DNA from: an uncultured beta proteobacterium
GTDB taxonomy: Bacteria > Pseudomonadota > Gammaproteobacteria > Burkholderiales > Usitatibacteraceae
Assembly (NCBI GenBank): GCA_963792865.1
Contig: CAWBYB010000004.1
Location: 3,826-67,825, forward strand
Reading direction: 5' to 3'
Length of the DNA stretch: 64,000 bases
Shown piece after piece: positions 5,945 to 64,000 of the stretch. The translations under genes and the position numbers were made by a program. Numbering within the stretch: position 1 is the stretch's first letter; each line of letters starts with the position of its first letter. The notes beneath the pieces are model-generated. The model made no database searches. It had not been told where the DNA came from and saw only the letters and a program-made list of their open reading frames with translations.

Positions 5945-6829
5945 GTGCGCCCCGACCTCTCCTCGCTCGCGCTCTTCATCCGCGTGGCGGAAGCGAAGAG
6001 CATCACGAAGGCCGCGGCCGCGAGCCATATCGCGCTCGCCGCGGCGAGCCGGCGCATCGCCCAGCTCGAGGACCAGTTCGGCGTCGAGCTGCTGCGCCGC
6101 TCCGCGCGCGGGGTCGACCTCACCGCGGCCGGCGAGGCGCTGCTCTACCACGCGCGCCAGATGATGGACCAGGTCGACCAGATGCGCGCCGAGATCTCGG
6201 ACTACACCATGGGCGCCAAGGGCATGGTGCGCATGCAGGCCAACGCCTCCGCCCTCGCCCAGTACCTGCCCGAGGACCTCGCGTCGTTCTCGGCGGCGCA
6301 CCCGGCGATCAAGGTCTCGCTCGGCGAGGAGCGCAGCTCCGCCATCGTGGCGGCGCTGCTCGCCGGCAGCGCCGACGTGGGTATCGTGATGGAGGGGGCC
6401 GAGGGCGCCGACGCGCTGCAGCGCTTCGACTACCGCGCCGATACCCTCGTGGCGGTCCTGCCGGTGAAGCACCCGGTGCGCGCCAGGAGCGTCGCCTTCG
6501 AGAAGCTGCTCGACCACGATTTCGTGGGCCTCGAGAGCAACACCGTGATCTCGCGTCTGTGCGCCCACCAGGCCGCGCTCGCCGGCAAGCCGCTGCGCCT
6601 GCGCATGCAGGTGAAGAGCTTCGCGGTCGTCGTGCGCTTCGTCCAGGCCGGCCTGGGCATCGGCGTGCTGCCGCTGGCAGCGGTCCAGGCCTTCGCCCGC
6701 TCGATGGGCCTGCGCACGGTGCGCCTGACCGATTCCTGGGCCACGCGGCGCATGTACGTCGCCGTGCGCCAGTACGATGCCCTGCCCGCCGCCGCCCGGC
6801 AGCTGGTCGACCACCTGGTGGGGACCTGA
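5945..6829 (+). CDS. LysR-family transcriptional regulator
   Basis: N-terminal HTH ([24 protein letters not shown]...[12 protein letters not shown]), 294 aa. Confidence 0.95.
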
Positions 6830-6833
6830 GGCC

Positions 6834-6848
6834 TTCGCAATCCGCGAA
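6834..6848. promoter_or_regulatory. Second TTCGC-N5-GCGAA palindrome upstream of aceA
   Basis: GCCTTCGCaatccGCGAAGGC at 6831-6851; same half-sites as 5911-5925. Confidence 0.55.
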
Positions 6849-6942
6849 GGCTTGCTTGCCGACATACCAATTCTCCCGGCACCGTCCCGGATGTTCTGAT
6901 GCGGGTGAGCCCGCATCCGCGCGGCACCGACCTGGAGAATCC

Positions 6943-41021: not shown

Positions 41022-42596
41022 ATGAAGATCGAGGATCGGCTCACCCGTCCCTTCGGCGACTTCGCCGAGCTGATCCGCGACCACGCCGCCGCGCGCCCGC
41101 GCCATCCGGCGATCATCCACGGCGAGCGCACGATCGACTACCGCGAGCTCGACGCGCTGGTCGATCGCGTGGCGGCCACGCTCGAGCGCGCGGGAGTGGC
41201 CCCGCGCCAGTCGGTCGCGATCTGCGCGGCGAGCTCGATCGAGTACCTCGCGGTCTTCCTTGGCGCGCTGCGCGCGGGCGTGGCGGCCGCACCCATCGCG
41301 CCATCGCTCACCCCCGAGAGCATCGCCGCGATGTCGATCGACGCCGGTGCGTGCCTGCTCTTCGTCGACCGCACCGTCGCCGACGCGCTCGGCTCGCGCG
41401 TGACGGCGCCCCGCGTGCGTCTCGACGGGGGGCCCGCGCTCGACGGCTGGCTCGCGCCATTCGATCCGCGGCCGGGCGCGGTGCGCATCGCGCCGGACTG
41501 GCCGTTCAACATCATCTATTCCTCGGGCACGACGGGCGAGCCGAAGGGAATCGTGCAGCCGCACGGCATGCGCTGGCTGCACGTGCAGCGCGGCCCGTCG
41601 TACGGCTACGATGCCGACGCGGTGACGCTCGTCTCCACGCCGCTGCACTCGAACACCACGCTCGTGGCGCTGTTCCCGACGCTGGCGCTGGGCGCAACGA
41701 CGGTGCTGATGGACAAGTTCGACGCAGCGGGATTCCTCGCGCTCGCCCAGAAGCACCGCGTGAGCCATGCAATGCTCGTGCCGGTGCAATACCGGCGCAT
41801 CATGGCCCTTGCCGATTTCGCCCGCTACGATCTCGCGTCCTTCCGCATGAAGTTCTCCACCAGCGCCCCGTTCGAGGCAGGGCTCAAGGCCGACGTGCTC
41901 GCGCGCTGGCCCGGCGGGCTCATCGAGTACTACGGCATGACCGAGGGCGGAGGCACCTGCGTGCTCGCCGCGCACCTGCATCCCGACAAGCTGCACACCG
42001 TGGGACAGCCGGCGCCGGGCCACGACATCCGCGTGATCGACGACGCGGGGCGCGAGCTGCCGCGCGGGGAGGCGGGCGAAATCGTCGGCCACTCCGGCGC
42101 GATGATGACCGGTTACCACAACCGGCCCGAGCGCACCGCCGAGGCGGAGTGGTTCGACAAGGCGGGCCGGCGCTACATCCGCACCGGCGACGTCGGCCGC
42201 TTCGACGATGACGGCTTCCTCGAGCTGCTCGACCGCAAGAAGGACCTCGTGATCTCCGGCGGCTTCAACGTCTATCCGGGCGACCTCGAAGCGGTGGCGC
42301 GCGCGCATCCGGCGGTCGCCGAGGTGGCGGTGGCGGGCGTGCCCTCGGCGCGCTGGGGCGAGACTCCGGTGGCGTTCGTGGTGCCCCGCGAGGGCTCGCA
42401 TGCCGACGCCGGGGAGATCCTCGCGTGGTGCAACGAGCGCCTGGGCAAGGTACAGCGGCTGGCGGCGGTCGAGCTGGTCGAAGGCCTGCCGCGCAGCCCG
42501 ATCGGCAAGGTGCTCAAGCGCGTGCTGCGCGACGATTTCGTACGCCGCCACCCGCGGGGCGCCGACATCGGCGCGCCCGGCGAGTCCCGGCGATGA
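41022..42596 (+). CDS. Class I adenylate-forming enzyme (acyl-CoA ligase)
   Basis: [35 protein letters not shown]. Confidence 0.9.
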
Positions 42597-44033
42597 GACG
42601 CCTGCTCGTGATCAGCGCGACCGCATGCCTCGCCGGCGCGTGCGCGAGCCCGGGCGGCATCGACACCACCGCGTCGGTGGCCGACCCGGCGGCGCTGCAG
42701 GCCGCCCGGTCCCTGGCCGGCGCGCCCGCCTCGGGGCCGCCCGTGGCGGCCGACTGGTGGAAGCGCTACGGCGATGCGCAGCTCGACGCGCTCATGGCCG
42801 AAGCGCTCGCCGGCAATCCTTCGCTCGGCATCGTGCGCGCGCGGGTCGGGCAGGCGCAGGCGCTCGCCGACAACGCGCACCTCGCCCTCACATCCACGTA
42901 CGTCGGGTCCGTCGAATCGAGCCGGCAGCGCCTGTCCGAGAACGGCCTGGTACCGCCGCCCTACGGAGGCGCGTGGATCTGGCAGAACCAGGCGATGCTC
43001 GACTACCGGCACGCATTCGATTTCTGGGGCCGCAATCGCCACGCGTACGAGGCCGCGCTGGGGCAGGTGAAAGCCGCCGAGGTGGATGCGCAAGCGGCGC
43101 GGACCCTGCTCGAAGCCGGCGTCGCGCGCGCCTACCTCCGCCTTGCCGCCGCGTTCGAGCAGCGCGACATCGGCAAGGCCACGCTCGCGCAGCGCGAGCA
43201 GATCCTCGCGCTCGCTCGCGCCCGCTACGATGCGGGCCTCGATTCCCGCGTCGGGGTGCGCGAGGCCGAAGGCGCGGTGCCGCAGGCGCGCGCCGAGATC
43301 CTCGCCGACGAGCAGGCGATCACGCTCGCGCGCAACCAGCTCGCCGCCCTCGTGGGGCAAGGGCCGGACCGCGGCCTCGCGCTGCGCCGGCCGGTCCTGC
43401 GCGACGCGGGCGTGGCGCTGCCCTCGACGCTTCCCGCCGACCTCGTGGGCCGCCGGCCCGACGTGGTGGCGCAGCGCCTGAGGATCGAGGCGTCGGCGCA
43501 GGGCATCGAGAGCGCGCACGCCGCGTTCTACCCCAACATCGACCTCACGGCCTTCGCGGGACTGCAGGCGCTCGACTTCGCCACCTTCCTGCGGACCGGC
43601 AGCCTCACGGTGGGGGCGGGTCCCGCGATCCATCTGCCGATCTTCGAGCGCGCCAAGCTGCGCGCCGACCTCGCGGCGCGAGCCGCCCAATGGGACCTCG
43701 ACGTGGCGCAATACAACCAGACGATCGTCGACGCCCTGCGCGAGGTGGTCGACGAGTACGCCACGCTGCGCGCGCTCGAGGCGCGCGAGCGGCAGGTCGC
43801 CGCCGCCCTGCGCTCGGCCAATCAGGCTCGCGCGCTGTCGAGCGCGCGCTATCGCGCGGGCGTGCGGCGACCGGCTCGAGGTGCTCTCCGCCGAGGGCCG
43901 GGCGCTCTCCCTGCGGGCGCTGCGGGCCGACCTGCGCGCGCTCCTGCGCGACACCGAGGTGGCGCTCATCCGCGCGCTCGGCGGCGGCTACGATCCGTCC
44001 ACCTCCCCGGCGCCCTCGGGCGCCCCACGCTGA
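42593..44033 (+). CDS. Efflux outer-membrane factor lipoprotein (NodT family), one frameshift
   Basis: Lipobox LAGAC, WWKRYGD, RRPDVVA, FYPNIDL; C-terminal LIRALGGG in the shifted frame after ~43865. Confidence 0.85.
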
Positions 44034-44059
44034 ACCCATCGCTCCCGGGATCCCACGCC

Positions 44060-45274
44060 ATGGCCTCCAATCCTCCCGCCCCCGGGCACTCCGAAGACGT
44101 TGCGACGAAGGAAGGCAGGCGCACGCGCCTGCTGCTCATCGTCGCGGCGATCTTCGCGCTCGCGGGGCTCGCGTGGTTCGCCTGGTACATGGTCGTGGGC
44201 CGTTGGTACGAATTCACGGACGACGCCTATGTGAACGGCGACGTGGTGCAGATCACGCCGCAAGTCGCGGGCACCGTGGTGATGGTGGCGGCCGACGACA
44301 CCGAGCGCGTGCAAGCGGGCCAGGTGCTCGTGCGCCTGGACGCGGCCGATGCGCGCATCGCGCTCGCCCAGGCCGAGGCGAACCTCGCGCGCGCCGTGCG
44401 GCAGGTGCGCACGCTCTACTCGAACACGGGGCAGTCCAGCGCCGCAGTCGCGCAGCGCGCGAGCGACCTGCAGCGCGCGCGCGCCGACCTCGCGCGGCGC
44501 GAGCAGCTCGCCTCCATCGGCGGGGTCTCGAAGGAGGAGATCCAGCACGCCTCCGAGGCGGTGGTGGGCGCAGAGGCTGCGCTGCGCGCGGCAAAGGAGC
44601 AGCTCGCCTCGGCCAGCGCGCTCGTGGACCGCACCACGCTCGAGGATCACCCTGACGTGCAGGCGGCGGCCACCCGGGTGCACCAGGCCTACCTCGACGA
44701 CGCGCGCACGCGGATCCTCGCGCCGGTGGCGGGCGTGGTCGCGCGGCGCAGCGTGCAGCTGGGTCAGCGCGTGGCCGCCGGCACGCCCCTCATGGCGGTG
44801 GTGCCGCTCGAGGATGTCTGGGTCGACGCCAACTTCAAGGAGGGCCAGATGCGCGACCTGCGCGTGGGGCAGTCGGCGAAGATCGAATCCGACCTCTACG
44901 GCGGGCACCTGGAGTACCACGGGCGCATCGTCGGCTTCGGCGCCGGCACGGGCGCGGCGTTCGCGCTGCTCCCGGCGCAGAACGCCACCGGCAACTGGAT
45001 CAAAGTCGTCCAGCGCATCCCGGTGCGCATCGCGCTCGATCCCCGGGAGGTGCGCGCGCATCCGCTGCAGGTGGGACTGTCGATGAGCGTGGAAGTCGAC
45101 ACCCACTCGCGCGAAGGCGAGCGGCTGCCGAGCGTGGCGGCGGCCCCCGCCACGAAGCAGGAGACCCGCGTCTTCGACGCGCTGATCGCGCAGGCCGATG
45201 CGCGCGTCGCGCAGATCATCGCCCAAAACACCGGCAAGCCGGTGGCGGCGAGCGAGCATGGCGAGCATCGCTGA
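44060..45274 (+). CDS. emrA: EmrA-family membrane fusion protein
   Basis: TDDAYV, WVDANFKE, LLPAQNATGNWIKVVQRIPV. Confidence 0.92.
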   Translation: MASNPPAPGHSEDVATKEGRRTRLLLIVAAIFALAGLAWFAWYMVVGRWYEFTDDAYVNGDVVQITPQVAGTVVMVAADDTERVQAGQVLVRLDAADARIALAQAEANLARAVRQVRTLYSNTGQSSAAVAQRASDLQRARADLARREQLASIGGVSKEEIQHASEAVVGAEAALRAAKEQLASASALVDRTTLEDHPDVQAAATRVHQAYLDDARTRILAPVAGVVARRSVQLGQRVAAGTPLMAVVPLEDVWVDANFKEGQMRDLRVGQSAKIESDLYGGHLEYHGRIVGFGAGTGAAFALLPAQNATGNWIKVVQRIPVRIALDPREVRAHPLQVGLSMSVEVDTHSREGERLPSVAAAPATKQETRVFDALIAQADARVAQIIAQNTGKPVAASEHGEHR

Positions 45275-52271: not shown

Positions 52272-53186
52272 TCAATCGAGCGGCTTCGGCTTGCCGTCGA
52301 CGATCTGGGCGGCGAGGCTCTGCCCATCCGGCATCACGAGCTGGCCGCGCGCGCGCTCCAGGCCCGACTCGAACGTGCCCTCGAAGCGGGTGCCGTCGGT
52401 GAGCCACAGGATGCCCTTGCCGTGGGGACTGCCCTGCCGCACTTCCCCCTGGTAGCGCACGCCGGTGTGGTAGCGAAAGGTCCCCTGCCCGGAGATCGCG
52501 CCCGCCACGATCTCGCCATCGTAGACATCGCCGTTCGCGAACCGATAGGTCCCCAGGCCGCTCGCCCTGCCGTCCACGAAGTCCGCCTCGAGGCTGTCGC
52601 CGTTGCTCCAATAGAAGCGGCCGTGACCCTCGATGCGGCCGCGGTCCATCTCGCCTTCGTAGCGGTCGCCGCCGTGGAAGCGATAGACCCCCACGCCCTG
52701 GGGCTTGCCCGCGACGAACGGGCCGTCGAACGAATCCCCGACCTTCGTCGTATACCGCCCCCGCCCCGCGATGGCGCCCGCCTTCACCTCGCCGTCGTAT
52801 ACGTCGCCGTTCGCGAGCCGGAAGCGGCCGGCGCCGTCGGGCTGGTCGCCGCGGAACTGCCCCTCGTATCGATCGCCGTTCGTCCAGGTGCAGGTGCCCT
52901 GCCCCTGCTTCACCCCGTCGCGGAAATCCCCGCTGTAGGTGAAGGCCTTCGTGATGATCTCGCCGCGCCCGTGGGGAATGGAGCCGCGCACCGCGCCGCG
53001 ATACACGGTGCCGTCGGTGAAGATCAGCTCACGCATTCCGGGCGCGAGAACGGGCGCGGGAGGCACCCCGATGGCGCGCGCGCATTCGCGATAGCCCAGG
53101 ATCGCAGCCGCCAGGACCAGCGCCATGAGCAGCGGCGGCGCACGCCTCGGCGGCGGCGCCACTTGAACGGCGGGTGGCGAGCTCAC
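52272..53186 (-). CDS. MORN-repeat protein with an N-terminal hydrophobic segment
   Basis: About ten 23-aa repeats YxGxxxxGxxxGxGxxxxxxGDx; GTGA overlap with the regulator stop (alternative ATG at 53126). Confidence 0.85.
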   Translation of the reverse strand: MSSPPAVQVAPPPRRAPPLLMALVLAAAILGYRECARAIGVPPAPVLAPGMRELIFTDGTVYRGAVRGSIPHGRGEIITKAFTYSGDFRDGVKQGQGTCTWTNGDRYEGQFRGDQPDGAGRFRLANGDVYDGEVKAGAIAGRGRYTTKVGDSFDGPFVAGKPQGVGVYRFHGGDRYEGEMDRGRIEGHGRFYWSNGDSLEADFVDGRASGLGTYRFANGDVYDGEIVAGAISGQGTFRYHTGVRYQGEVRQGSPHGKGILWLTDGTRFEGTFESGLERARGQLVMPDGQSLAAQIVDGKPKPLD

Positions 53187-54577
53187 TCCAGCTTGTGGCG
53201 CTTGATCTTGCGCCAGAGCGTGGACTTGTCGATGCCCAGGATGTCCGCGGTCGCGGCCCGGTTGCCGTTGTTCTCCCGCAGGGTCTTGGCGATGAAGAGC
53301 GCCTCGACTTCCTCCAGGCTTTGCGGGGAGGCGTTGTCCAGGGAATGCAGGCGCGGCTCCCTTTCCTCGAGCAGCTCCGCGGGCACCGAATCCACGTCGA
53401 GGATCTCGCCGGGAGCGAGGATCAGCATGCGCTGCACCACGTTCTCGAGCTCGCGGCCGTTGCCCGGCCAGTCGTGGCGCACCAGCGCGGCGAGCGCGTG
53501 GGTGCTGAATCCCCGCGCCGGCTTGCCCAGCCGGGCGGCATGCTTGGCGAGGAAGTAGCTCGCGAGCACCGGGATGTCGCCACGGCGCTCGCGCAGCGGC
53601 GGCAGGTGGACCTCGAGCACCTTGAGCCGATAGTAGAGGTCCATGCGAAACTCGCCCGCGCTCACCAGCTCGGGCAGCGGCCGGTTCGTCGCGGCCAGCA
53701 GGCGCACGTCGGTGCGCCGGGGCTCCGTGCTGCCCATCCGGAAGAACGAGCCGTCCTGCAGCACGCGCAGCAGCTTGGCCTGCAGCGAGGCCGGGGCGTT
53801 GTTGATCTCGTCCAGGCACAGGGTGCCGCCGTCGGCAACCTCGAACAACCCCGGCTTCGAGCGTCCGGCGCCCGTGAACGCCCCCGCCTGGTAGCCGAAC
53901 AGCTCGCTTTCGATGAGGCTGTCGGGAATCGCGGCGCAATTGATCGCGACGAAGGACTGGTCGCGCCGGCGGCTGAGGTCGTGGATCATCCGCGAGACGA
54001 TCTCCTTGCCGGTGCCCGACTCTCCCGTGATCAGCACCGCGCAGTCGTAGCCGGCGAACACCTCCACGAGGCGGCGCGCCTCGTCGATCGCCGGGCTCTT
54101 GCCCACGAGCCCGTCGCTTTCCCCGTGTGCGCGGCGCGACTCCCGCAGGCGGTGGTTCTCGCGATTGAGCAGCGCGTACTGCAGGGCGCGCTCGATGGTT
54201 CGCCGCAGGTCGTCGGGCTCGAAGGGCTTGCGCAGGTAGTCGTAGGCGCCCGACTTGAGCGCTTCCACCGCCGACTCTATGGTCCCGTGGCCGGTGATCA
54301 GCACGACCTCGGTGAGCGGGTTGCACTGCTTGGCGAATTTCAGCACGCGCAGGCCGTCGGCGTGCGGCATGCGCAGGTCCGTGAGCACCACCGCGACGTC
54401 CTGCTTCTCGAGCATATCGCCCGCGATGGCCGCGTTGCGTGCCGTCACCACCACCGCGGGCAGGGGCTCCAGCACCTCGGTGAGCAGGGTGCGCATCGCA
54501 TCGTCGTCCTCTACCACGAGGACCACGGCGCGCGCCGCCGCCCCGGGACGCAGCTCAGGCGTCAGCGCAGTGGCCAT
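53183..54577 (-). CDS. Sigma-54-dependent response regulator (NtrC/AtoC/ZraR type)
   Basis: REC (VEDD, TDLRMP), GESGTGKE, GAFTGA, WPGNGRELEN, Fis-type HTH. Confidence 0.95.
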   Translation of the reverse strand: MATALTPELRPGAAARAVVLVVEDDDAMRTLLTEVLEPLPAVVVTARNAAIAGDMLEKQDVAVVLTDLRMPHADGLRVLKFAKQCNPLTEVVLITGHGTIESAVEALKSGAYDYLRKPFEPDDLRRTIERALQYALLNRENHRLRESRRAHGESDGLVGKSPAIDEARRLVEVFAGYDCAVLITGESGTGKEIVSRMIHDLSRRRDQSFVAINCAAIPDSLIESELFGYQAGAFTGAGRSKPGLFEVADGGTLCLDEINNAPASLQAKLLRVLQDGSFFRMGSTEPRRTDVRLLAATNRPLPELVSAGEFRMDLYYRLKVLEVHLPPLRERRGDIPVLASYFLAKHAARLGKPARGFSTHALAALVRHDWPGNGRELENVVQRMLILAPGEILDVDSVPAELLEEREPRLHSLDNASPQSLEEVEALFIAKTLRENNGNRAATADILGIDKSTLWRKIKRHKLE

Positions 54578-56009
54578 GGAGTACGGCTTCGGCAAGGGGC
54601 AGCTTGAGGACGAACCGCGCCCCGCCGCGGTAGGTGGAATCGCAATGCAGCGTGCCGCCGATTCCCATGACGATCGACTGGCTGATCGCGAGGCCCAGCC
54701 CCGTACCCTCGCTGCCCCCCTTCGTCGTGAAGAACGGATTGAACACGCGGCTGTGAACCCCCGCGGGAATGCCCGGCCCGTTGTCGGTGACCGTCACCAC
54801 CGCGCTCGCACCTTCCACCCGGGTCCCGACCACCACCCGAGGGCGCGGAATGGCGCCGGCGCTCGCCTGCAGGGCATTCGTGATCACGTTCACCAGCACG
54901 ATGTCGAGCTGGCCGGAGCCGCCCAGCACGGGCGGGCTCTCGCACAGGTCCACCTCGATCGGCACGTTGAAGTTGTTGCGCCGGCAATCGCAGATGGTCG
55001 CGACGACGTCCCGGATCACCACGTTGATGTCGCAGGTCTCCGGCGCGCAGCGCTCCTTGCGCGCGTAGGTCAGCAGGCTGTCGATGATCCGCGCGCAACG
55101 CTTCGCTTCGCTGTAGATCGCCTGGCCGTACTGCGCGCGTTTCGCCTCGCTCGTGCCGCCGGCGTTCAGCAGCTGGGCATAGCCCACGATGGTCCCGAGC
55201 GGGGTGTTGAGCTCGTGCGCGACGCCGCCCGCGAGCTGTCCCATGGCGACGTATTTCTCCGACTGGTGGGTCACCTCCTGAAGGCGCCGGTAGTCGGTGA
55301 CGTCCTGGAGCATGAGGACGGCGCACGGATCCCGCGCGTCCGGGGAATGCTTGAAGAAAGTGACGCTCAACGTGAAGTGGCGCCTCGCCTCCGCGTCGCC
55401 GAGCACGATCTCGCGATTGCTCACCTGCTGCTCGTACAGGAAGGCCTCGCGCAGCAGCTCCCTGCCCTCGTCGTCGAGCTTCAGCAGGTCGAAGAGGTTG
55501 CGGCCCCGCAGGTCGGTCCCCGCGAGCCCGAAGAGGGCCTCCGCGCGATCGTTCGACGTGGTCACGCAGAAATCGACGTCCACGGCGAGCATCACGCAGG
55601 GCAATCCGCGCAGGATGGCATCGTAGCGGTTGCGCTCCCCGATGATCCAGAGTTGCGAGCGCTCCATCTCCTCGAACAGGGTGCTCAGCCGCTGCGCGAG
55701 GACGTTGTAGTCCGCGACGATGGTTCCGGGGTATGACTGCCCGGGACGATCCGCCGGCTCCAGGTGGCCTTCCAGCGCGCGGCGAATCGCGCGATGCAGC
55801 AACGGCAGGTTGCGATTCCCGGCGCGGAACCCCATGGCCAGGCCGACCGCCAGGGAAATCGCGATGGCGAAAGGGCCGAGCAACCGGCCGGGTAAGGGCA
55901 GGCTCGCCCAGGTCGCCCACGAGACCACGGCGAGGACCAGTGCCACGCCGACAGCCAGCACCAGCGGCCAGACGGGCGCGCGCGCGCGTTCCACGCGCGC
56001 CGGCACCAT
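54555..56009 (-). CDS. PAS-domain sensor histidine kinase
   Basis: Two TM helices, PAS, GVAHELNTP H-box, NVITNA, DNGPG, PFFTTK, GTGLGL. Confidence 0.92.
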   Translation of the reverse strand: MVPARVERARAPVWPLVLAVGVALVLAVVSWATWASLPLPGRLLGPFAIAISLAVGLAMGFRAGNRNLPLLHRAIRRALEGHLEPADRPGQSYPGTIVADYNVLAQRLSTLFEEMERSQLWIIGERNRYDAILRGLPCVMLAVDVDFCVTTSNDRAEALFGLAGTDLRGRNLFDLLKLDDEGRELLREAFLYEQQVSNREIVLGDAEARRHFTLSVTFFKHSPDARDPCAVLMLQDVTDYRRLQEVTHQSEKYVAMGQLAGGVAHELNTPLGTIVGYAQLLNAGGTSEAKRAQYGQAIYSEAKRCARIIDSLLTYARKERCAPETCDINVVIRDVVATICDCRRNNFNVPIEVDLCESPPVLGGSGQLDIVLVNVITNALQASAGAIPRPRVVVGTRVEGASAVVTVTDNGPGIPAGVHSRVFNPFFTTKGGSEGTGLGLAISQSIVMGIGGTLHCDSTYRGGARFVLKLPLAEAVLHGHCADA

Positions 56010-56224
56010 GCCCTCGATCAGATCGCCACTGGCCCGCAAGAAACCTCCCCCCGCTCTCGACGGCGCGGCGCGGGACGATCCTGGTATTGTTCCCTGCGAA
56101 TCCCCCGGCCGGCGACGCAACAAGTCACCCGAGACGGATCCATTAAATCATATCGGCGCGGAGCCGGATGAGGGGCGGCGGAGGGCCCGCGACCCGGGGC
56201 GCGGGCGCGCCCGGCGCTCGCCGC

Positions 56225-57337
56225 TCACTTCCCTTGGACCGAAAGCGATGGGCGCAGCCGCGCCATCGAACGCCCCACCCACTGGATGGCTCCCCAGACG
56301 ATGAGCACGCCGACCAGTATCGCGCTGCCAAGCGCCAGCCAGCCGGGCAGGATGGGCGTGAGGCCCGTGGCCAGGTCGCCGAACTCGAGGCTGGTCAGGG
56401 GATCCAGCTTGGGCCGGTAATCCACGAGCAGGAGATTCACCACCCAGCCCGCGAGAATGGACAGGGAGACGACTCCGCCCACGTAGATGGCCACGGTCCG
56501 CGTGCCGAGCACCCGCTGCAGCGCGATGATCTCCGGCAGGTTGGTCGCCGCCCCGGTCACCAGGAACACGATCGCCGCGCCGGGGCCGGCGCCCGCGGCG
56601 AGCATCGCGGCGACCAGCGGGATATGCGCCACCGCGCAGACGTAGATGCTGGCGCCGAAGAGCGCGACCATCAGCAGCGAGGCAAGCGGCGCGGCGCCTC
56701 CCAGGTGGCTCGAGATCCAGCCGGAAGGAGCGAGGACCCCGAGCAGTCCCGCGAGCACGATGCCGATCCCGATGTAGAAGCCGAGCGTCGGGCCCAGCTC
56801 CCCGAACCCCCACTTGAAGGCGCGCGTCAGGCGCGCGCCCAGGCTCGCGGCGGAGGCAGGCCGGGACGCGGCGGGCTCGGAGCAGCAGCACGATTGCAGG
56901 CGCACCGCGGTCGGATTCATGCCCGTGTCGCCCCACCTCTCGGCCATGTAGCCCACGACGATCGGCGCGCTCAGCCCGAAGATCACGTAGGCGAGGGTGA
57001 GCTGCGGGCCGAGCAGCGCATAGGACAGGACGACGGCGGCCGGATTGATCACCGGCGTCGCGATGGTGAACGCGATGACGGCGGCCAGCCGCACGCCGCC
57101 CAGGAAGAAGCTCACCGCCAGGGGGATCACGCCGCAACTGCAGATCGGCAGCGTGGCGCCCAGCGCCATGCTGGCGAGCACGCCCGCGCCGCCCGACTCG
57201 CGCATCGCCCGCTGGACCCTTCCGGTGTCCATGAACTCATGGATGAGCCCACCCGCCAGGAGGCTCACGAGAATCCAGAACCCGGCCTCCTGCAGCAGAC
57301 CGGCGGCCAGCAGTGCCATTTCGCGAAGGACTTGCAT
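56225..57337 (-). CDS. DUF318 / ArsP-family permease
   Basis: LPICSCGVIP, ATPVINP, IYVCAVAHIP, FLVTGAATN; extra SCCCS in the central loop. Confidence 0.88.
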   Translation of the reverse strand: MQVLREMALLAAGLLQEAGFWILVSLLAGGLIHEFMDTGRVQRAMRESGGAGVLASMALGATLPICSCGVIPLAVSFFLGGVRLAAVIAFTIATPVINPAAVVLSYALLGPQLTLAYVIFGLSAPIVVGYMAERWGDTGMNPTAVRLQSCCCSEPAASRPASAASLGARLTRAFKWGFGELGPTLGFYIGIGIVLAGLLGVLAPSGWISSHLGGAAPLASLLMVALFGASIYVCAVAHIPLVAAMLAAGAGPGAAIVFLVTGAATNLPEIIALQRVLGTRTVAIYVGGVVSLSILAGWVVNLLLVDYRPKLDPLTSLEFGDLATGLTPILPGWLALGSAILVGVLIVWGAIQWVGRSMARLRPSLSVQGK

Positions 57338-57368
57338 CAGCGCGCCATTGCCGTCGCGGCCATTCCGG

Positions 57369-57806
57369 TCACCCGGCGCGGCGCTCGAGAGCGCCCAACT
57401 GGGCGAACGCGGTCCTCAACTCGGCCTCCAGGTCGTGCATCAGGTCGGCGGGACACATGAGCCGCCCGCCCGACTGGCACTGCGAGGCGGCGTTCAGCAG
57501 GGCGTTCGTGAGGATCATCGAGCGTTGCAGCTGGAGCAGCCCGGGCGGCGGATTGGGGATGGCGCGCACGATCTCGCGCAGCCGCTCCCGATGCGCCTCG
57601 ATCTCGCGCCGGAAATCGGCAGCGCTCGCATGTTCCTTGGCCTCCCTCGCGAGGACCGCCGATCGCTCGATCCATGCGCGCTCCGCCAGCAGCGTTCGCT
57701 TGGCCAGGGCCTGGCGCACAGGAATCCACGCCAGCAGGCAGGTCGCGGCCGCCATGATCCATCGCCGCCGGGCCGGGCGCCGCGGGCCCGTGGTCCGGGA
57801 AAGCAC
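57369..57806 (-). CDS. Small exported helical protein of unknown function
   Basis: RRRWIMAAATCLLAW...ALA (Tat/Sec-like signal), amphipathic helices, CQSGGRLMC; start uncertain. Confidence 0.55.
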   Translation of the reverse strand: MLSRTTGPRRPARRRWIMAAATCLLAWIPVRQALAKRTLLAERAWIERSAVLAREAKEHASAADFRREIEAHRERLREIVRAIPNPPPGLLQLQRSMILTNALLNAASQCQSGGRLMCPADLMHDLEAELRTAFAQLGALERRAG

Positions 57807-57844
57807 GCCGCCCCGATGCGCGTGCGAGAGAAGCGCGATCCGCT

Positions 57845-58576
57845 TCAGGACGGGCGTTGGCCGAAACGACGCGCATCCTCCGCCGCATACGAGGCGACGG
57901 CCTTGTCGGCCTTGCAGCTCGCGCCGAGCCTCGCGACCACCTCCCCGAGCTTGCTCACGGGGATCGCGCACGTCATCTCGTTGTTCGTCATGCCCGTTCG
58001 CGTGCGGCTCAGCATGCACCCGACGCTGAGCGCCACCTGCCCCATCTCCTTGGCGATCGGGATGATGTGGCATTGCGGCTTGCCTTCGAAGCGGATGTCG
58101 GGCATCGCATCATGCAGCGACATGGCCTGCTTCCCGTTGACCCGCAGGAAGACGACATCGGGATCGAACTTCGTGTCGCCGAGCGGTCCGTAGACCACGC
58201 ACTTCGGGCGCTGCTTCACCACCGGGATGCCGGGAAACATCTCCGGGGCGACCCATTGGGCCTCGACCAGGGCCTTCACGTCGGACTTCGTCGCCGCCGC
58301 GTCGAGCCCGACGAACCCGTGCGTGAGGCTGCCCACGCTGCAATTGGCATGGTCCTCGGCACAGGTGTGGAACGTGCGGTCGACGGCCTTCATCCAGAAC
58401 ACGCACCCCGCCGATACCTTCCCCGTGCGCCCATCGGACGTCGGCTGCGGCATGGCGCCCTCGTAGCGCGGCATCCCCGCCGGCTCCTCCTGCGTGAACG
58501 TGATCGCCAGCGGTGGCGAGCCCAGCGTCAGCAGGTCGGTCAATGCGCCTGCAATGGCCTTGTAGTCGTGCTTCAT
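57845..58576 (-). CDS. DUF169-family protein
   Basis: GCVFW, HANCSVG, YGPL...PDVV, PQC, SVGCMLSR...EM...IP; AGGAG RBS. Confidence 0.8.
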   Translation of the reverse strand: MKHDYKAIAGALTDLLTLGSPPLAITFTQEEPAGMPRYEGAMPQPTSDGRTGKVSAGCVFWMKAVDRTFHTCAEDHANCSVGSLTHGFVGLDAAATKSDVKALVEAQWVAPEMFPGIPVVKQRPKCVVYGPLGDTKFDPDVVFLRVNGKQAMSLHDAMPDIRFEGKPQCHIIPIAKEMGQVALSVGCMLSRTRTGMTNNEMTCAIPVSKLGEVVARLGASCKADKAVASYAAEDARRFGQRPS

Positions 58577-58607
58577 GTAGTGGCTCCTGTTCCGTCGCCT
58601 TGCGAAG

Positions 58608-60599
58608 CTAGCAGCCGCCGCAGGGATTGCAAACTCCTCCGCCGCCCCCACCGCCGCCGCCCCCACCGCCACCACTGCCGCCGCTGCTCGAGGTCGTCGA
58701 CGTGGAAGTCGGCTGCGCCTTATAGCTCGCGAACGCGAAGCCGGTCGCGTTGCCCGGCAACGTAATGACGTCGACCAGCTTGCGTGAGGCCACGTCGATC
58801 ACGTCGACGCTGTTGTTGCGCAGCTGGTAGAACTTCTTGCCGTTGGGCCCGAAGCTGCCGCTGAACGCGCTCGGCAGCGCCATGGTCTCCTTGATCTTGT
58901 AGGGCGCGCCGATGCCGGTCAAGTCCACGATCTGGAATCCATCGATCGCGCCGAAGCCGGTTCCCGTGAGCAGCCAGACCTCGTCGCTGAACAGGACGTA
59001 GTCGGTTCCGCTGCCTTGCTTCCTTGCGATGTTCGCCTCGCTGGTACCGGCGCGGCCGTTGAGACCGTTCAGGATGTAGCCCGGGCCCGGGTCGGAGGCG
59101 TTGACCTTCTTCAGGTACGCGCTGGTGACGTCCTGGCTCACGCCCGACCCGCTGTCCGCGGGCAGCGCCACGTACTGGTAGTCGACGTTCTTCGCCACGC
59201 CCCCGGTGCTCACGTAGCTCACCGAGACCGCATAGGTGGTGCCGTTCACGAAGGGCGCGCTGCCGATGTCGGTCGCGAGGACATACTTGAGGTTGGTCAC
59301 CAGGCGCTGCACCTCGAAAACATTCGACGGGTTGGTCACGTCCCAGATGCTTTCGCTGTTGTCACCCTCGTTCTCCACGGTCATGAAGAACTCGTTGCCC
59401 ACGTTGCGGTTGAGCAGCGAGGCCATCCAGGGGCCCGTGCGCTGGCCCGAGGAACTGAAAGCCGCGGAACCCTTGCCGCCCGCGGAAACCGGCGCGGCGG
59501 ACCGGCTGATCACCGGGACCGGGACCTGGACCACTTGCGGGCTCGCCGTGTCGATCTTGCCCATGTTCACGCCGGTGATCGTGTCGCCGTTCACGTCGGG
59601 CCACCAGGTCCACACCTCGCCGGCGGCGTTGCGCAGCGCCGTCGAGTCGCACGGCTCGCTGTAGGTGTTCTTGTCGGTTTCGGAAGTTCCCCCCGAGGCG
59701 CGGTTGTAGTTGGTCTTGCCGGGAGCCGTCCCGCCGGCGGGCGTGTACAGGCCCGCGAAATGCGCCACCACGCTGTTGTTCTGGTCCTTGACCACGCCCA
59801 GGCGCGGATAGACGAAACGCACCGGGTACCCGAAGGTGGGCGAGTTGGGATCGGTATCGAGGAAGTAGGCGTGGTCGCCGATGCGCTCCGCGACCATGGT
59901 GAGCTTGCCGTCGGGCGCGGGCTCGATGCCTACCGGCGTGTAGCCCATGTTGTGGAAGGGCGGCGCCACCGCGATGGCCTTGGCCATCAGGTCCGAGCCC
60001 AGCTTGGTGTCGATGCCGCTGCGCGAAGAGCGCACCGCGCATATGTCGATGACGCGGGCCTCCTCGTAGGTGAGGCTCGTCCGGTTGAAGTACTTCTGCA
60101 GGGTGGCCCTCTGCTTCGCCGCGGCGGCGTCGCCCTGTGCGACCTCGAGCGCCAGTGCCTTCTGGTCCACGATGCCCGGGCCGATCGTTCCTTCGCGGTT
60201 GCCCTGGACGGAAGGCGCGTTGTATGGGCGCGGGAGCACCTGCAGCGTGTTGGGATCGATGCCCCACACCAGGGCCCCGGCATCCACCCAGATGGGCCCG
60301 TCGTAGAACGCCTGCTTGTGGGTCCCGCCCGAGCCGGAGACGCCAACGACGGCCGTCTTCATGATCTGGTCCGAGTCGAGGTCGACGCGCGCAATGCTGT
60401 CGCCGGTGCCGTCGCCGTCCGAATCGTAGAAGACGAACAGTGCCGGGGTGAGGACCGGCTGCGTCGCGGTATTGAACTGCAGGGTGCCGCTGCTCTCCCC
60501 GCCGGAGCAACCCGCCAGCGCGAGCGCCGCGGCGAAGGTGGCGGCGAGCGGCCACCACATGCGATGTTCCCGATCAACGCGGATGAGTTGGTCCTTCAT
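58608..60599 (-). CDS. Large lipoprotein, probable beta-propeller, with a Ser/Thr/Gly linker and C-terminal CNPCGGC
   Basis: GGAGG RBS, lipobox LAGC, blade-like repeats (APDGK, FGPNGKKFY, VDVIDVASRKLVDVI), 663 aa. Confidence 0.8.
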   Translation of the reverse strand: MKDQLIRVDREHRMWWPLAATFAAALALAGCSGGESSGTLQFNTATQPVLTPALFVFYDSDGDGTGDSIARVDLDSDQIMKTAVVGVSGSGGTHKQAFYDGPIWVDAGALVWGIDPNTLQVLPRPYNAPSVQGNREGTIGPGIVDQKALALEVAQGDAAAAKQRATLQKYFNRTSLTYEEARVIDICAVRSSRSGIDTKLGSDLMAKAIAVAPPFHNMGYTPVGIEPAPDGKLTMVAERIGDHAYFLDTDPNSPTFGYPVRFVYPRLGVVKDQNNSVVAHFAGLYTPAGGTAPGKTNYNRASGGTSETDKNTYSEPCDSTALRNAAGEVWTWWPDVNGDTITGVNMGKIDTASPQVVQVPVPVISRSAAPVSAGGKGSAAFSSSGQRTGPWMASLLNRNVGNEFFMTVENEGDNSESIWDVTNPSNVFEVQRLVTNLKYVLATDIGSAPFVNGTTYAVSVSYVSTGGVAKNVDYQYVALPADSGSGVSQDVTSAYLKKVNASDPGPGYILNGLNGRAGTSEANIARKQGSGTDYVLFSDEVWLLTGTGFGAIDGFQIVDLTGIGAPYKIKETMALPSAFSGSFGPNGKKFYQLRNNSVDVIDVASRKLVDVITLPGNATGFAFASYKAQPTSTSTTSSSGGSGGGGGGGGGGGGGVCNPCGGC
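58635..58715 (-). repeat. Low-complexity poly-Gly/Ser/Thr linker
   Basis: Encodes PTSTSTTSSSGGS followed by a long Gly run with mixed GGN codons. Confidence 0.85.
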
Positions 60600-60682
60600 T
60601 TTCCTGCCTCCTTGCATCGTATGCATCCCGGGCGTGGACCCGGTTGACGAGTATCGCCTGCGCTCTGGCGGCGCTCCGAACC

Positions 60683-61894
60683 TCAGAAGATGAACTGCAG
60701 TGCCAGCGTCGTATGGTCGTAATCCCGCAGCGAAGGGTCAGTCGGATGCTGCTTGTCGAACTTGATCTTCGCGTACTCCAGGCTGAGCCTCAGGTTCTGG
60801 CCGTTGATGTAGTAGTTGACGCCGAGCCCGTCCCACTTCTGGGAGAAGTATCCGCTGTCGACCCCGTATTTCGATCGCTCGTAACGGAAGTAGGGCTGGA
60901 GCCTGCCGATGCCGACCTTGTTCGGAAACAGGTAGGCCCCCTTCACGTAGTAAGCCTTCAGCTCGGAGGCCACCGAAAGCGAGGGATCGGGATCCTCGTT
61001 GATCGCATTGCCGGTGTTGTAGTCGAAGTACGCCGTCGACAGGACGTAGGTTCCGCCCGCCGTGGGGTACTCCATCATCGCGTCCACGGTCCACGCCTTG
61101 TAGTTCTTGATGTCGGTGCGCTGCGTGTAGTTGCCATAGGCCACGTTCGCCTGGTAGTCGTAGGCGGCGCCGATCGTGAGTACCTTCTTGGTACCCAGGT
61201 AATTGCTGTGATAGCCGTAGTCCGTCTCGGGGTCCCACAGCGACAGGTGCACCCGCGCGGTGAGACGCGGCGACTTCTTCGGGACCACGTCGCCCTGGCG
61301 GCCGTCGGCCACCATCAAGCGGTACTGGAATTTCCCGTCGGCGAGGTTGCCCCACAGGGAGACGCCGTCGTCGCGCGTGCCGCCCTGAGCCCCGAAGGGC
61401 GAATAGGCGATCACCTCGGCGCGGTCGATGCTGAGCGGCTCCATGCAGGCTTCGAGGTTCTCGCGGCTGAACGTGTTCTTGAATCGGCCGGCGATCAGGC
61501 GCAGTCCGTCGGTGTAGTCGACCGTGAGGTAGGCGTCGCGGTAGTAGATCGACTTGTCGGCGTTGCCCTGCTTGTCGTCGTTGCCTGACTCGATCTGGAC
61601 GTAGTACCCGACCAGGTCGTTGGCCTGGCCCGCGAACAACAGGCGATTGCGGCGAAAGAAATTATCGTAGGTGCGGCCGTTGTCGGTCGATGACGTGTAG
61701 CTCTGTTCCTGCGACCAGAACTGGAACGCGTAGCTGATCGTGATGTAGCCCTCGTCCCCGAACGGAATGGTCGGGCCCGCGAAGGCGCTCGGCGCGGCAC
61801 CTGCGGCGAGAGCGAGCGCGGAGCAAAGCGCCAGGTGGTTCATCGTGTCGCGGGCTCGCGCGGCGTTGGTCCCCTTGCGGTTCTTCACGGTCAT
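60683..61894 (-). CDS. Outer-membrane porin, ExtI-like (phosphate-selective porin superfamily)
   Basis: Signal peptide, FRRNRL, SRENLEAC.PL.IDR, TRDDGVSLWGN, DPETDYGY...YLG.KKVLTIG, C-terminal LQFIF beta-signal; resembles Geobacter ExtI from recall. Confidence 0.8.
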   Translation of the reverse strand: MTVKNRKGTNAARARDTMNHLALCSALALAAGAAPSAFAGPTIPFGDEGYITISYAFQFWSQEQSYTSSTDNGRTYDNFFRRNRLLFAGQANDLVGYYVQIESGNDDKQGNADKSIYYRDAYLTVDYTDGLRLIAGRFKNTFSRENLEACMEPLSIDRAEVIAYSPFGAQGGTRDDGVSLWGNLADGKFQYRLMVADGRQGDVVPKKSPRLTARVHLSLWDPETDYGYHSNYLGTKKVLTIGAAYDYQANVAYGNYTQRTDIKNYKAWTVDAMMEYPTAGGTYVLSTAYFDYNTGNAINEDPDPSLSVASELKAYYVKGAYLFPNKVGIGRLQPYFRYERSKYGVDSGYFSQKWDGLGVNYYINGQNLRLSLEYAKIKFDKQHPTDPSLRDYDHTTLALQFIF

Positions 61895-62463
61895 TTCCCC
61901 CCTCCGGAAGCGATCTGATAGGTCTTCAGCAGGGTGGGCGCATCGCCCGACTTGTGGCACTTGGTGCATGCCTCGGGCTTGGTCCGCGGATCCTTCGCCA
62001 GGTTGGCGTGGGCGAGATCCTTCTTGATGATCCGGGGATTTCCGCCATGGCATCCGACGCAATCATCGTTGACCGTCATGTGGTCCGTGTGCCAGGGATT
62101 GGACTTCTTGTCCATCTTCGGCGCCTCGGCGCGGGTGCCGTTGTGGCACTTGAAGCACGAGGAAGCCCCGAGGCCGCAGGCATTGGCGATGGAGATGGGC
62201 GCCAGCGCGAAGGCCCGGTCGCGAACCGCGTCCAGCGCCTCGCTGCCCCAGGCCGCCGTCTGCGTGCCGGATACCGGCGGTGCGGCGCGGGATTGTCCCG
62301 CAGTTGCCCGCGCCTGGATGGCGCGCGTTTCCGGCTGCGAGAGCGAGACGAACGAACTCCAGGCCACGGCGAGTACCCAGATCGCGGCCACGGCACCTGC
62401 ACCCATGGATACCTTGCGGGCGACCTTGCGGAAGATCGGCCCGATCCCCTTCATTCGATCCAT
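61891..62463 (-). CDS. Membrane-anchored triheme cytochrome c
   Basis: CFKCH, CVGCH, CTKCH; N-terminal TM helix; GAGGAG RBS; ATGA-coupled to the porin. Confidence 0.85.
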   Translation of the reverse strand: MDRMKGIGPIFRKVARKVSMGAGAVAAIWVLAVAWSSFVSLSQPETRAIQARATAGQSRAAPPVSGTQTAAWGSEALDAVRDRAFALAPISIANACGLGASSCFKCHNGTRAEAPKMDKKSNPWHTDHMTVNDDCVGCHGGNPRIIKKDLAHANLAKDPRTKPEACTKCHKSGDAPTLLKTYQIASGGGK

Positions 62464-62564
62464 TTGCTCCTCCTCGCGTGCCTGTTGTTCGGGTCAGAGG
62501 GCCTCGAACTCGCCCTGCCGACGGTCCCGGATGCCTCGGCGTCGCCCCCGGGTACGTTTTCTAT

Positions 62565-62849
62565 CTAACGGCTGGCCTGCGCGCGCTCTTCCTGCGCCTT
62601 CTTGATCGCGGCTTCCGACGTTCCCCCCGATGCGCAGTCACAAGCGCAAGTGCCGTCCTTGCCACGGAACTTCAGCCGGGACTTCCTCACGCTCTTGTCG
62701 GCCGAGGCCCGGGTGGCGGCCGGGACGCCCTGCGCCGGCGCGACGGCTTTCTGCGCGGCGTCCGCGGGCGCAGCGGCGGCTGCCAGGCACTGCGTCGCGG
62801 CAAGGCCGAGGCCTATCGCGAGCAGGTATCGAAACGATCGTCCCATCAT
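62565..62849 (-). CDS. Small secreted protein with a CACDC motif
   Basis: GGGAG RBS, signal peptide, Ala/Pro linker, RLKFRGKDGTCACDCASGGTSE; 94 aa. Confidence 0.7.
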   Translation of the reverse strand: MMGRSFRYLLAIGLGLAATQCLAAAAAPADAAQKAVAPAQGVPAATRASADKSVRKSRLKFRGKDGTCACDCASGGTSEAAIKKAQEERAQASR

Positions 62850-62950
62850 CGTGGCTCCCGGGATCAACAAGTCGAGGCGATTGCGCCAACCGAAGCTGTA
62901 CCGCTGAACGAACCAATTTATTGCGCACGATCAAAGTTGCGCTTGACCAA

Positions 62951-62966
62951 AGCATGATTTGTGCCG
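62951..62966 (-). promoter_or_regulatory. Sigma-54 (-24/-12) promoter
   Basis: Minus strand CGGCAC-AAATC-ATGCT, exact GG-N10-GC spacing. Confidence 0.75.
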
Positions 62967-63022
62967 CGCACTTCGCGATCGCGTCACAGGCGAGGCCGGT
63001 GCGAAGCGAGACCATCCCGCCA

Positions 63023-63065
63023 TTGCACAAACGCAAGGATTCACTCGAACGATGCCAATCTGCAA
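63023..63065. promoter_or_regulatory. Paired upstream activator-like sites (T/A)TGC-N6-GCAA
   Basis: TTGCacaaacGCAA at 63023-63036 and ATGCcaatctGCAA at 63052-63065, about 60-100 bp upstream of the -24 box. Confidence 0.55.
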
Positions 63066-63083
63066 TCGCGGGCGTACCCGACA

Positions 63084-64000
63084 CTACCGCGGCGGAATCG
63101 GCCTGCTCAATCGATACAGCTCGTAGCCGCCGCCAGTCTGCGCCAGCGCCTCGCGCAACAGAGGAACGGCGTCGGGAGGCAATCGACCCTTCCTTTCCAG
63201 AACGCTTCGAAACAGGCGCTCGTAATGCTTGCCCGGAGAGACGATCACCTGCAGCTCGACCTTCCATCCCTTCTCCTGCGGGGCGGGGAACCGTCCCCCG
63301 AACAGCAAGCGTCCGCCGGGAGCGATGCGCGTGTCCGAGATCTCGTGCTTGAGATCCAGATCGACGTGCCTGCCGATCACCTGCCGAGCGAGCTCCGTGC
63401 GGGCACGGCCGCTCGCATCCACCAGGCGCAGGCTGGCCACCACTTCGGGCACGACGTAGGTGGGAAAGTAGTGCCCGGCGCCAATGTTGGCGAGCCGCCC
63501 CTGGACCCAAATGACTTCCTTGCCGCGGCGCCGCACCTCGAGAGAAACGGTGAGTGCCTTGCGCACCATGTCCGCATCGTGGATTCCGCGCCACAGGTGC
63601 CGGCCGCCGGGCATGTGACAGGACTGGCACGATCTTCCTTGCCGCGCCGCAGGGCTCGCCCGCCATTCGACGAAGGTGTTCTCGAGGAGCTTGCCGTTCA
63701 CGCTGGGTCCGTCGGCGGGGAATTGATGGCAGACCGCGCAGAAGCGGCTGTCCCGGAATCCGGCGTCCGGCGTGAAGCCCCCATGCGGCAGGGCGGCAGC
63801 ATCGCTGGCGCGCTCGGCGCCGCCCCGGGCAGGAGGGCCGTAGCGCGCATGTCCTCGCACGTGACAGGCGGCGCATACGAGGCCTTCACGATGCAAGTCC
63901 GGCGCGACATAAGGCGGCGGCGGCGTGGCGGGAACGTGCGCCCAATGCATCTCCACGGCGAGCAGCGCCTTTTGCTCCGCGAGCGGTGCGTGGCAGCGCA
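63084..64000 (-). CDS. Multiheme cytochrome c (c554-like), 5' end outside the window
   Basis: Truncated xRCHAP at the window edge, then CAACH, CAVCH, CQSCHMP, GHYFPT. Confidence 0.85.
   Translation of the reverse strand, partial: RCHAPLAEQKALLAVEMHWAHVPATPPPPYVAPDLHREGLVCAACHVRGHARYGPPARGGAERASDAAALPHGGFTPDAGFRDSRFCAVCHQFPADGPSVNGKLLENTFVEWRASPAARQGRSCQSCHMPGGRHLWRGIHDADMVRKALTVSLEVRRRGKEVIWVQGRLANIGAGHYFPTYVVPEVVASLRLVDASGRARTELARQVIGRHVDLDLKHEISDTRIAPGGRLLFGGRFPAPQEKGWKVELQVIVSPGKHYERLFRSVLERKGRLPPDAVPLLREALAQTGGGYELYRLSRPIPPR

Follow-up and report, generated by a model that had tools for sequence, protein, structure and literature searches.

The window analyzed here, 64,000 nucleotides (nt) of contig C4 of an uncultured betaproteobacterium (G000:C4:3826-67825; host assembly of 3.26 Mb, 74% complete), ends in a gene series that forms one half of a conserved module of two operons whose sigma-54 promoter elements match. 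We lean towards the view that this module imports sulfane sulfur (polysulfide or derived from elemental sulfur, S0) through both membranes for the Dsr pathway, and that the version found here, built around a beta-propeller lipoprotein, adds the export of a soft metal or metalloid entering along with the sulfur. The locus is composed of known modules (Geobacter ext, the YTD/DsrEFH type II relay and an SAO-like permease) assembled around an uncharacterized lipoprotein family, and its hosts are uncultured and likely sulfur-oxidizing bacteria. A previous sequence-only reading had described 11 genes, from a multiheme cytochrome to a MORN-repeat protein, as one porin-cytochrome-lipoprotein system. 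All 11 were confirmed, with the claimed order and all on the minus strand, and profile searches matched ExtI (NF040900), PF02596, PF03773, the PAS/HisKA kinase, the sigma-54 activator and MORN. The system is nonetheless bigger than that series: the supposed opening gene, which encodes a pentaheme cytochrome of 414 amino acids (aa), starts 328 bases past the window end, and the system reaches about 3.6 kb past the window, into a divergent sulfur-relay operon. The features are as follows, where L001 denotes the locus G000:C4:66800-72500, which overlaps the window end and the DNA past it.

63084..64000 (cut by the window end; start at L001:1354), minus strand: pentaheme cytochrome c, 414 aa, five CxxCH motifs and an Ig-like domain, MccSep/5ZE8 family
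63051..63067, minus strand: 17-bp motif GATTGCA(A/G)ATTGGCATC, 85 nt ahead of the sigma-54 site
62952..62965, minus strand: near-consensus sigma-54 -24/-12 site, GG-N10-GC, ahead of the CACDC-triheme-porin-lipoprotein genes
62565..62846, minus strand: small secreted (CACDC) protein, 93 aa, C-terminal CxCxC module with cysteine (Cys) columns conserved in 11/12, 12/12 and 11/12, no family
61891..62463, minus strand: triheme cytochrome c, N-terminal hydrophobic segment, non-heme Cys96 invariant (10/10)
60683..61894, minus strand: ExtI-family porin (NF040900), invariant Cys150
58608..60599, minus strand: lipoprotein of 663 aa, a YVTN-like beta-propeller carrying large insertions, with C187 and C317 invariant, then a Gly/Ser linker and the NPCGG(C) tail
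57845..58576, minus strand: DUF169 protein (PF02596), seven Cys columns conserved among full-length relatives
57369..57755, minus strand: small exported protein, CxxGGxxxCP, both Cys in 12/12, no family; a GTG start at 57806 is possible
56225..57337, minus strand: ArsP_1/DUF318 permease, SaoE-like, with CSC, CCC and YVC
54555..56009, minus strand: PAS histidine kinase with two membrane helices and hardly any periplasmic domain; four Cys are kept in 8/8
53183..54577, minus strand: sigma-54-dependent response regulator (family match)
52272..53126, minus strand: MORN-repeat protein (family match), a neighbor outside the system
L001:1492-1508, plus strand, outside the window: second 17-bp motif, ahead of the divergent operon
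L001:1563-1576, plus strand, outside the window: second sigma-54 site, 54 nt past the second motif
L001:1726-1977, plus strand, outside the window: TusA-like, first gene of the divergent operon
L001:about 1965-3423, plus strand: YeeE-family transporter, frame split by a one-base insertion
L001:3461-3718, plus strand: TusA/YeeD, second TusA of the divergent operon
L001:3896-4198, plus strand: DsrE-like, Cys63 invariant in 8/8
L001:4206-4636, plus strand: two small DsrF/H-like genes, end of the divergent operon

The gene set recurs in other genomes. Among 26 loci with the lipoprotein (many on truncated contigs; the apparent duplicates L019, L022, L023 and L026 and the short loci L034-L049 were excluded), seven hold a near-complete cluster, in three differing gene orders and reaching 40% lipoprotein identity (L031), and most of the remaining loci are ended by contig ends. 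Beside the lipoprotein we found the pentaheme cytochrome in 18 loci; the triheme cytochrome, the exported protein, the permease and the DUF169 protein (one a remnant) in 14 each; the CACDC protein in 13; the porin, yeeE and the dsrE-like gene in 11 each; the kinase and activator in nine; and SaoD-like, MerB-like and MerR-like genes in seven, three and three. The exported protein adjoins the permease in every locus containing one of them. The MORN protein, which adjoins the lipoprotein in 2/26 loci (the host and its closest relative), drops out as a member. A three-gene minimal core suggested by L006 and L010 was also discarded, both loci being ended by contig ends. A reduced cluster, L050 (G629), keeps tusA, the permease, the exported protein, the regulators, the pentaheme cytochrome, the propeller and a SaoD-like gene, with the porin, triheme cytochrome and yeeE not beside them.

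The two operons appear to be controlled together. The sigma-54 promoter claimed from the sequence alone is confirmed. The same element stands at this place in L005 and L009, and rpoN is present in the host genome above cut-off. With as many as two mismatches allowed, the genome contains the 17-bp motif exactly twice, once per promoter; 12 shuffled genomes gave one match in total. Motif and sigma-54 site were found again in L002, L003 and L005, and at up to three mismatches the motif occurs only in the host and three close betaproteobacterial loci among the loci compared, which did not include those of the rhodanese type described below. The motif is likely the binding site of the sigma-54 activator, and both operons probably form one regulon under the locus's own activator.

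The distribution of the module in the host family (143 genomes sampled) ties its parts together. The ExtI porin is present in 21 genomes and the DsrE-like gene in 22, among them all 21 with ExtI, and the two lie on the same contig in 21/21, about 5-7.5 kb apart. An ExtH-like rhodanese lipoprotein (99 bits on NF040901, cut-off 200) is found in 15 genomes and the propeller in six, with zero overlap, and 15 + 6 makes up the 21 ExtI genomes; the ExtH-like query gave no match in the host G000, at its 74% completeness. Of six rhodanese loci fetched, two were read. Both encode a rhodanese that closes with a Gly/Ser linker and NPCG, the same tail as in the propeller, and both run from the rhodanese gene through pentaheme, a short stretch left unread, triheme and porin to kinase and activator, with porin and kinase directly adjacent. 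The proposal that a propeller lipoprotein stands in place of the rhodanese is thus borne out. The SaoE-like permease is present in exactly the six propeller genomes of the family, and DUF169 was not found in 5/5 rhodanese-type genomes in a search run without a positive control. The rhodanese-type island itself, found in 15 family genomes (for example at L057:6230-7726 in G417 and L058:~5690-7188 in G348: ExtH-like lipoprotein with NPCG tail, pentaheme, triheme, ExtI and a two-component pair), is a simpler test system; no description of it was found in the literature searched.

The lipoprotein belongs to no family that profile searches could match above cut-off. Its AlphaFold2 model (predicted local distance difference test, pLDDT, 73; predicted template modeling score, pTM, 0.73) is a beta-propeller, as had been read from the sequence, and its best fold match is the YVTN propeller 1l0q (Z 26.8, root-mean-square deviation 2.9, 292 residues aligned). 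Insertions make up about half of the chain (~290 of 580 residues align to plain propellers). The family is small: one search gave 36 proteins, and another, over 1.84 billion sequences, nine representatives with E no higher than 1e-10. Its named members, among them proteins from Usitatibacter, Rubrivivax, Sulfuricaulis, Thiogranum and Thiohalophilus, are all annotated as "hypothetical". In a tree of 38 rows, from which fragments and the permuted P0039 were excluded, the lipoproteins nearest that of the window form one supported clade (98/99) separate from the gammaproteobacterial ones. P0039 is a circularly permuted propeller, with the C-terminal blades first and the NPC tail kept; the lipoprotein of L003 is disrupted by a single indel. 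Sequence searches of the Protein Data Bank (PDB) gave no relative for the lipoprotein, nor for the triheme cytochrome, the porin, the DUF169 protein or the DsrE/F-like proteins.

Conservation in this family centers on Cys residues. C187 and C317 are invariant, and PC(G/A) occurs within the last 25 residues of 40/43 homologues, preceded by a Gly/Ser linker in those aligned. The CNPCGGC tail described earlier is indeed present in the window protein; its conserved part is NPCG(G), and the extra Cys is mainly a trait of the betaproteobacterial group. With a C-terminal Cys on a flexible Gly-rich arm, the tail resembles the swinging arm of SoxY; a GGCGG end occurs in L055. The carrier folds are unrelated, NPCG(G) here sits on a lipoprotein, and sulfur loading of this arm is a proposal. 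A selenocysteine (Sec) in place of the tail Cys was considered and rejected: the codons after PCGG are TGA-TAA in L006, L007, L008 and L010 and TGA-TAG in L021, but TAG or TAA elsewhere. No stem-loop is common to the loci with TGA at this point; three of the four genomes with a TGA-TAA tail yielded no selA, selB or selD, with incompleteness of metagenome-assembled genomes as a caveat; and one genome having sel genes carries TAG after PCGG. The search for Cys-to-Sec homologues thus returned none.

The same propeller invites another explanation, which we hold to be very improbable: that it is an organosulfur enzyme, acting on a methylated polysulfide, thiol or thiocyanate-like compound and freeing sulfur for the relay, while the organic or organometallic remainder leaves through the permease. 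Some periplasmic sulfur enzymes, such as methanethiol oxidase and thiocyanate dehydrogenase, are seven-bladed propellers, and the large conserved insertions of the lipoprotein, with near-invariant EPCD and GPWM stretches, would suit an enzyme. Against this, the alignments contain no invariant His for a copper site, and copper-loading genes were not seen in the loci. Neither of the two enzymes is among the fold matches listed for the lipoprotein, which does not exclude either.

The divergent operon shows the synteny of YTD loci (yeeE, tusA, dsrE and two small genes), with a 43-aa peptide encoded after the second TusA and before the three small proteins. Its DsrE-like protein carries Cys63, a candidate counterpart of the active-site DsrE Cys67 of the cable-bacterium protein; its nearest Atlas clusters are named DsrE-family and mostly from Nitrospirota and Pseudomonadota. 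It shows no detectable similarity to the type I DsrEFH of the host, which has dsrA and soxB above cut-off and a dsrABEFHC-type operon with type I dsrEFH. These dsr genes, named from motifs and context, presumably run in the oxidative direction. Within the host family dsrA is present in 6/6 propeller genomes versus 39/143 overall (a tally that includes the unpublished genome G505; hypergeometric 3e-4, overstated since kin are not independent), and in 19/21 ExtI genomes. In a second order, that of G406, the figures are 8/8 versus 74/103, with little contrast, so that over both clades dsrA accompanies the propeller in 14/14 genomes. By score, the dsrA genes of the family separate into a group near 600 bits and another at about 510-540 bits; each of the four propeller genomes whose dsrA is whole belongs to the former. 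Among the neighbors, genes identified from motifs are sat in L002/L003 and sox genes, 6.5 kb away, in G406. In the YTD cluster, the three small proteins were shown to assemble into DsrEFH type II and to hand sulfur on from TusA to DsrC (PMC13293266).

Turning to the outer-membrane and periplasmic parts, the porin scores 330.5 bits on ExtI NF040900 (cut-off 150), and the pentaheme cytochrome has five CxxCH motifs in 119/119 homologues. The latter matches the MccSep structure 9WT8 (profile E 4e-11) and shares its fold with the pentaheme cytochrome c552 of Thermochromatium tepidum (PDB 5ZE8; Z 22.6, root-mean-square deviation 3.2, 304 residues aligned), to which it is just 23% identical; it lacks the Cys in the loop after heme 4 and has an invariant P289-T290-Y291 instead. 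On NF040886 (MccSep/ExtKL) it reaches 36 bits (cut-off 250). MccSep is a periplasmic polysulfide reductase requiring the heme-ligating C239 and the catalytic U325, and Geobacter ExtKL, homologous to the pentaheme, is a polysulfide reductase induced by S0, whose authors left outer-membrane entry open (PMC13510729). In the window protein these two residues align to L215 and V292, which weakens the earlier proposal that the substrate is redox-transformed. Cys-less MccSep-like cytochromes with the invariant PTY are much more widespread than the propeller (at least 120 matches at 49-91% identity) and form an uncharacterized branch. The triheme cytochrome scores 19 bits on ExtS (cut-off 100) and 14 on ExtM (cut-off 800). 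Complex prediction of the triheme cytochrome against porin plus pentaheme gave 0.35 (single runs 0.41, 0.01 and 0.35; best control 0.05), falling to 0.02 once the pentaheme was replaced and the porin kept, with no interface given. The mark used (30% or more of contacts common to the runs, partner pLDDT of 55 or more) is passed by 116/157 solved and 2/215 mismatched pairs, of which just 18 solved pairs and both mismatches lie at 0.60 or below. A triheme-pentaheme contact is a faint lead from modeling. For a cytochrome lodged within the porin, as in electron conduits of the MtrAB/Pcc type, the prediction offered this weak triheme score and nothing further.

Homology to ExtI and MccSep also bears on selenium and tellurium. 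It seems improbable to us, though somewhat less so than an organosulfur enzyme, that the module takes up or reduces their oxyanions, as in the Geobacter ExtI phenotype. The porin belongs to ExtI, the best-scoring model for YeeE is YedE/FdhT (125 bits, cut-off 350) and for TusA it is YedF, selD is above cut-off in 6/9 distinct carrier genomes (7/10 handles, two of which are one genome), and selenite is likewise reduced by MccSep (PMC13510729). The same paper reports a sevenfold preference of MccSep for polysulfide, and the pentaheme homologues have neither Sec nor Cys at the MccSep positions. Moreover, selA is found in 2/9 carriers, selA and selD were not found in the 74% complete host, and the TGA after PCGG is unconvincing as a Sec codon.

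Building on gene content, synteny, promoter elements, the complementarity of the two lipoproteins, the dsrA association and the missing residues, all read directly from the genomes, we infer the substrate and the chemical steps of sulfane sulfur import as follows. The kinase and activator would switch on both operons through the shared 17-bp motif and sigma-54 sites. A sulfur anion would pass the ExtI porin and be captured by the Cys of the flexible NPCG arm of the lipoprotein, a role we propose for the arm; the ExtH-like rhodanese that takes this place in relatives has the same arm. The triheme and pentaheme cytochromes may tune redox state or chain length; this is the weakest step, and any catalysis by the pentaheme, C239 and U325 being absent, would need another residue or a partner Cys such as triheme C96. 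By the example of characterized relatives, sulfur would then pass from YeeE to TusA, the DsrEFH-II-like proteins and DsrC/DsrAB. The permease and DUF169 protein would bind and export the metal(loid) or other residue remaining after sulfur removal, a step suggested by the exact co-occurrence of permease and propeller and by the failure to find DUF169 in those rhodanese-type genomes that were tested. The sequence-only reading had allowed import and relay of an S, Se, Te or As species or a soft metal; this list narrows toward sulfur because of the co-regulated YTD-type operon, dsrA in 14/14 propeller genomes, the homology to MccSep and the lack of a Cys-to-Sec homologue, with the redox step weakened and the metal role reduced to an add-on.

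Several observations weigh against sulfane sulfur import. The propeller does not have a rhodanese fold, and no catalytic site was identified in it. No Cys is present at the MccSep C239/U325 columns or adjoining columns in 119/119 pentaheme homologues, and the only tested phenotype of ExtI in the literature consulted is selenite/tellurite reduction (PMC5877670). The yeeE gene is frameshifted in the host assembly (L001:2755-2762) and, differently, in L005, in whose genome single indels break both yeeE and dsrA; the host insertion is likely an assembly error, decay being the alternative. The host already has type I DsrEFH, making the YTD-type relay a second one, and just 14/113 of the dsrA genomes examined have the propeller, so the module is accessory. 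The rhodanese/propeller split largely tracks genus (sole exception G428) and may go back to one event or at most two; L024, a distant locus, carries both lipoproteins together. Finally, tail-less propeller relatives adjoin MerR-like genes, with no porin or cytochrome seen in those loci. These propellers (L025, L027, L028 and L032, tail-less where the end is available) occur with a MerR-like regulator, a subtilase with P domain, an unknown 218-aa protein, DUF547, SaoD-like and rhodanese genes, and possibly belong to a separate metal-responsive system.

The metal signal is concentrated on the permease. It scores 139 bits on PF03773 (cut-off 32.3) and 267.6 on SaoE NF040736, below the cut-off of 325, and its CSC motif, kept in 12/12, has been proposed as a marker of metal exporters (SaoE/SO_0444; bioRxiv 10.1101/2022.07.06.499078). 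Because of this SaoE-like permease with CSC, and of MerB-like and MerR-like genes in relatives, the soft-metal or metalloid handling claimed for the whole system is supported for the add-on module alone, not for the core. An unlikely alternative holds that the propeller version chiefly deals with a soft metal or metalloid (Hg, organomercury, As, Cu/Zn) by thiol capture, MerB-like cleavage and permease export, with the sulfur relay supplying or recycling sulfur. The exclusivity of the permease to the six propeller genomes fits this, as does a MerB-like gene in 5/6 propeller versus 0/7 rhodanese-type genomes tested, whose product keeps Cys/Asp/Cys at what we assume to be MerB-like positions. So do the SaoD-like genes at 7/26 loci and the MerR-like regulators beside the distant propellers L027, L028 and L032 (106-125 bits, cut-off 150.85), with three Cys in what is presumably the spacing of Hg-MerR. 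However, in G000, G538 and G428 the MerB-like gene is not linked to the cluster, and G528 lacks it; the fetched loci showed no MerA, MerT/P or ars genes; the sigma-54 two-component control is common with the YTD operon; and all 14 propeller genomes have dsrA. The host's own MerB-like gene (G000:C3:65764-66492, L041) stands alone, 67% identical to the cluster-side copy in L002, with no mer operon seen around it.

Compared with known systems, the locus falls outside the ext operon, MccSep and SAO as a whole, while its modules individually have described relatives. With Geobacter extHIJKLMNOPQS (PMC5877670, PMC13510729) it shares the ExtI porin above cut-off, a same-family pentaheme, a small secreted protein near the porin and, in 15 relatives, the ExtH-like rhodanese. 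It differs in having a propeller for the rhodanese, a pentaheme without C239/U325, its own sigma-54 pair and a junction to YTD and permease; the ExtM/N/O/P/Q/S cytochrome and bc-type genes are not in the locus, and window-type hosts have dsrA and sox and are not S0 respirers. With YTD/DsrEFH type II (PMC13293266, PMC12998232) it shares the order yeeE-tusA-dsrE-two small genes, the absence of detectable similarity to the host's type I DsrEFH, nearest clusters mostly in Nitrospirota/Pseudomonadota, as in subtype 1, and possibly the invariant DsrE Cys. Distinct from YTD are an extra TusA-like gene in front, co-regulation with an outer-membrane module and a host that also has type I DsrEFH; the available parts of the two papers describe no porin-cytochrome-lipoprotein partner. 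With SAO (bioRxiv 10.1101/2022.07.06.499078) it shares the SaoE-like permease with CSC, SaoD-like and MerB-like genes in relatives and many Cys motifs, but all matches are below cut-off, there are no selenoproteins, and the hosts are other than the anaerobic fermenters described. No SaoP/A/B/X ATP-binding cassette importer or Sec-containing SaoL is in the locus, a genome-wide search not having been made. In a sulfur disproportionator, a similar arrangement reportedly places a porin gene next to YeeE and periplasmic sulfur transferases (PMC12142623). By analogy, the locus would work like ext plus YTD. No publication on the gene combination or the lipoprotein was found in the literature searched, which reached few subscription journals; for single modules, these genomes may already be listed in the supplements to PMC13293266 (genomes) and PMC13510729 (homologues).

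The composition of the locus does not set it apart. The 11-gene stretch, described earlier as visibly less GC-rich, has a GC content of 0.678 versus 0.706 in the rest of the window, and 14.5% of same-length genome windows are equally low. The dip mostly reflects protein composition, because GC at third codon positions is 0.88-0.93 in 8/11 genes, and a recent foreign origin judged from GC is unsupported. A stronger anomaly, down to 0.56-0.63, lies past the window end at G000:C4:about 73,800-79,800, after a long glycosyltransferase-like gene and a methyltransferase-like one. Elsewhere in the window (42425-45274), a single 949-aa frame with an odd linker covers both an efflux outer-membrane lipoprotein and an EmrA-like protein, suggesting a frameshift near the junction.

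Outer-membrane sulfur transferases or porins are still to be identified (PMC13490349), and the passage of sulfur over the outer membrane and periplasm to cytoplasmic Dsr is an open question in that paper and in PMC13510729; the locus gives candidates for every step in one likely regulon. It connects the ext module of sulfur reducers with the YTD relay in likely sulfur oxidizers, and it offers a natural swap, rhodanese versus propeller on the same Cys arm with the permease coming with the propeller, which allows direct tests of an unnamed lipoprotein family, of DUF169 and of the large Cys-less MccSep-like branch. A bolder extension, which we think rather unlikely, is that the propeller is an outer-membrane sulfur transferase of a new class, with no relation to rhodanese, and strips sulfur from metal(loid)-sulfur species (mercury polysulfides/thiolates, thioarsenates) for Dsr oxidizers. 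The sulfur would serve as fuel via YeeE-TusA-DsrEFH, the Cys-less MccSep homologue would borrow a Cys from the triheme cytochrome or the arm, and the permease would expel the metal(loid). If this were true, sulfur oxidation would be tied to Hg or As mobilization.

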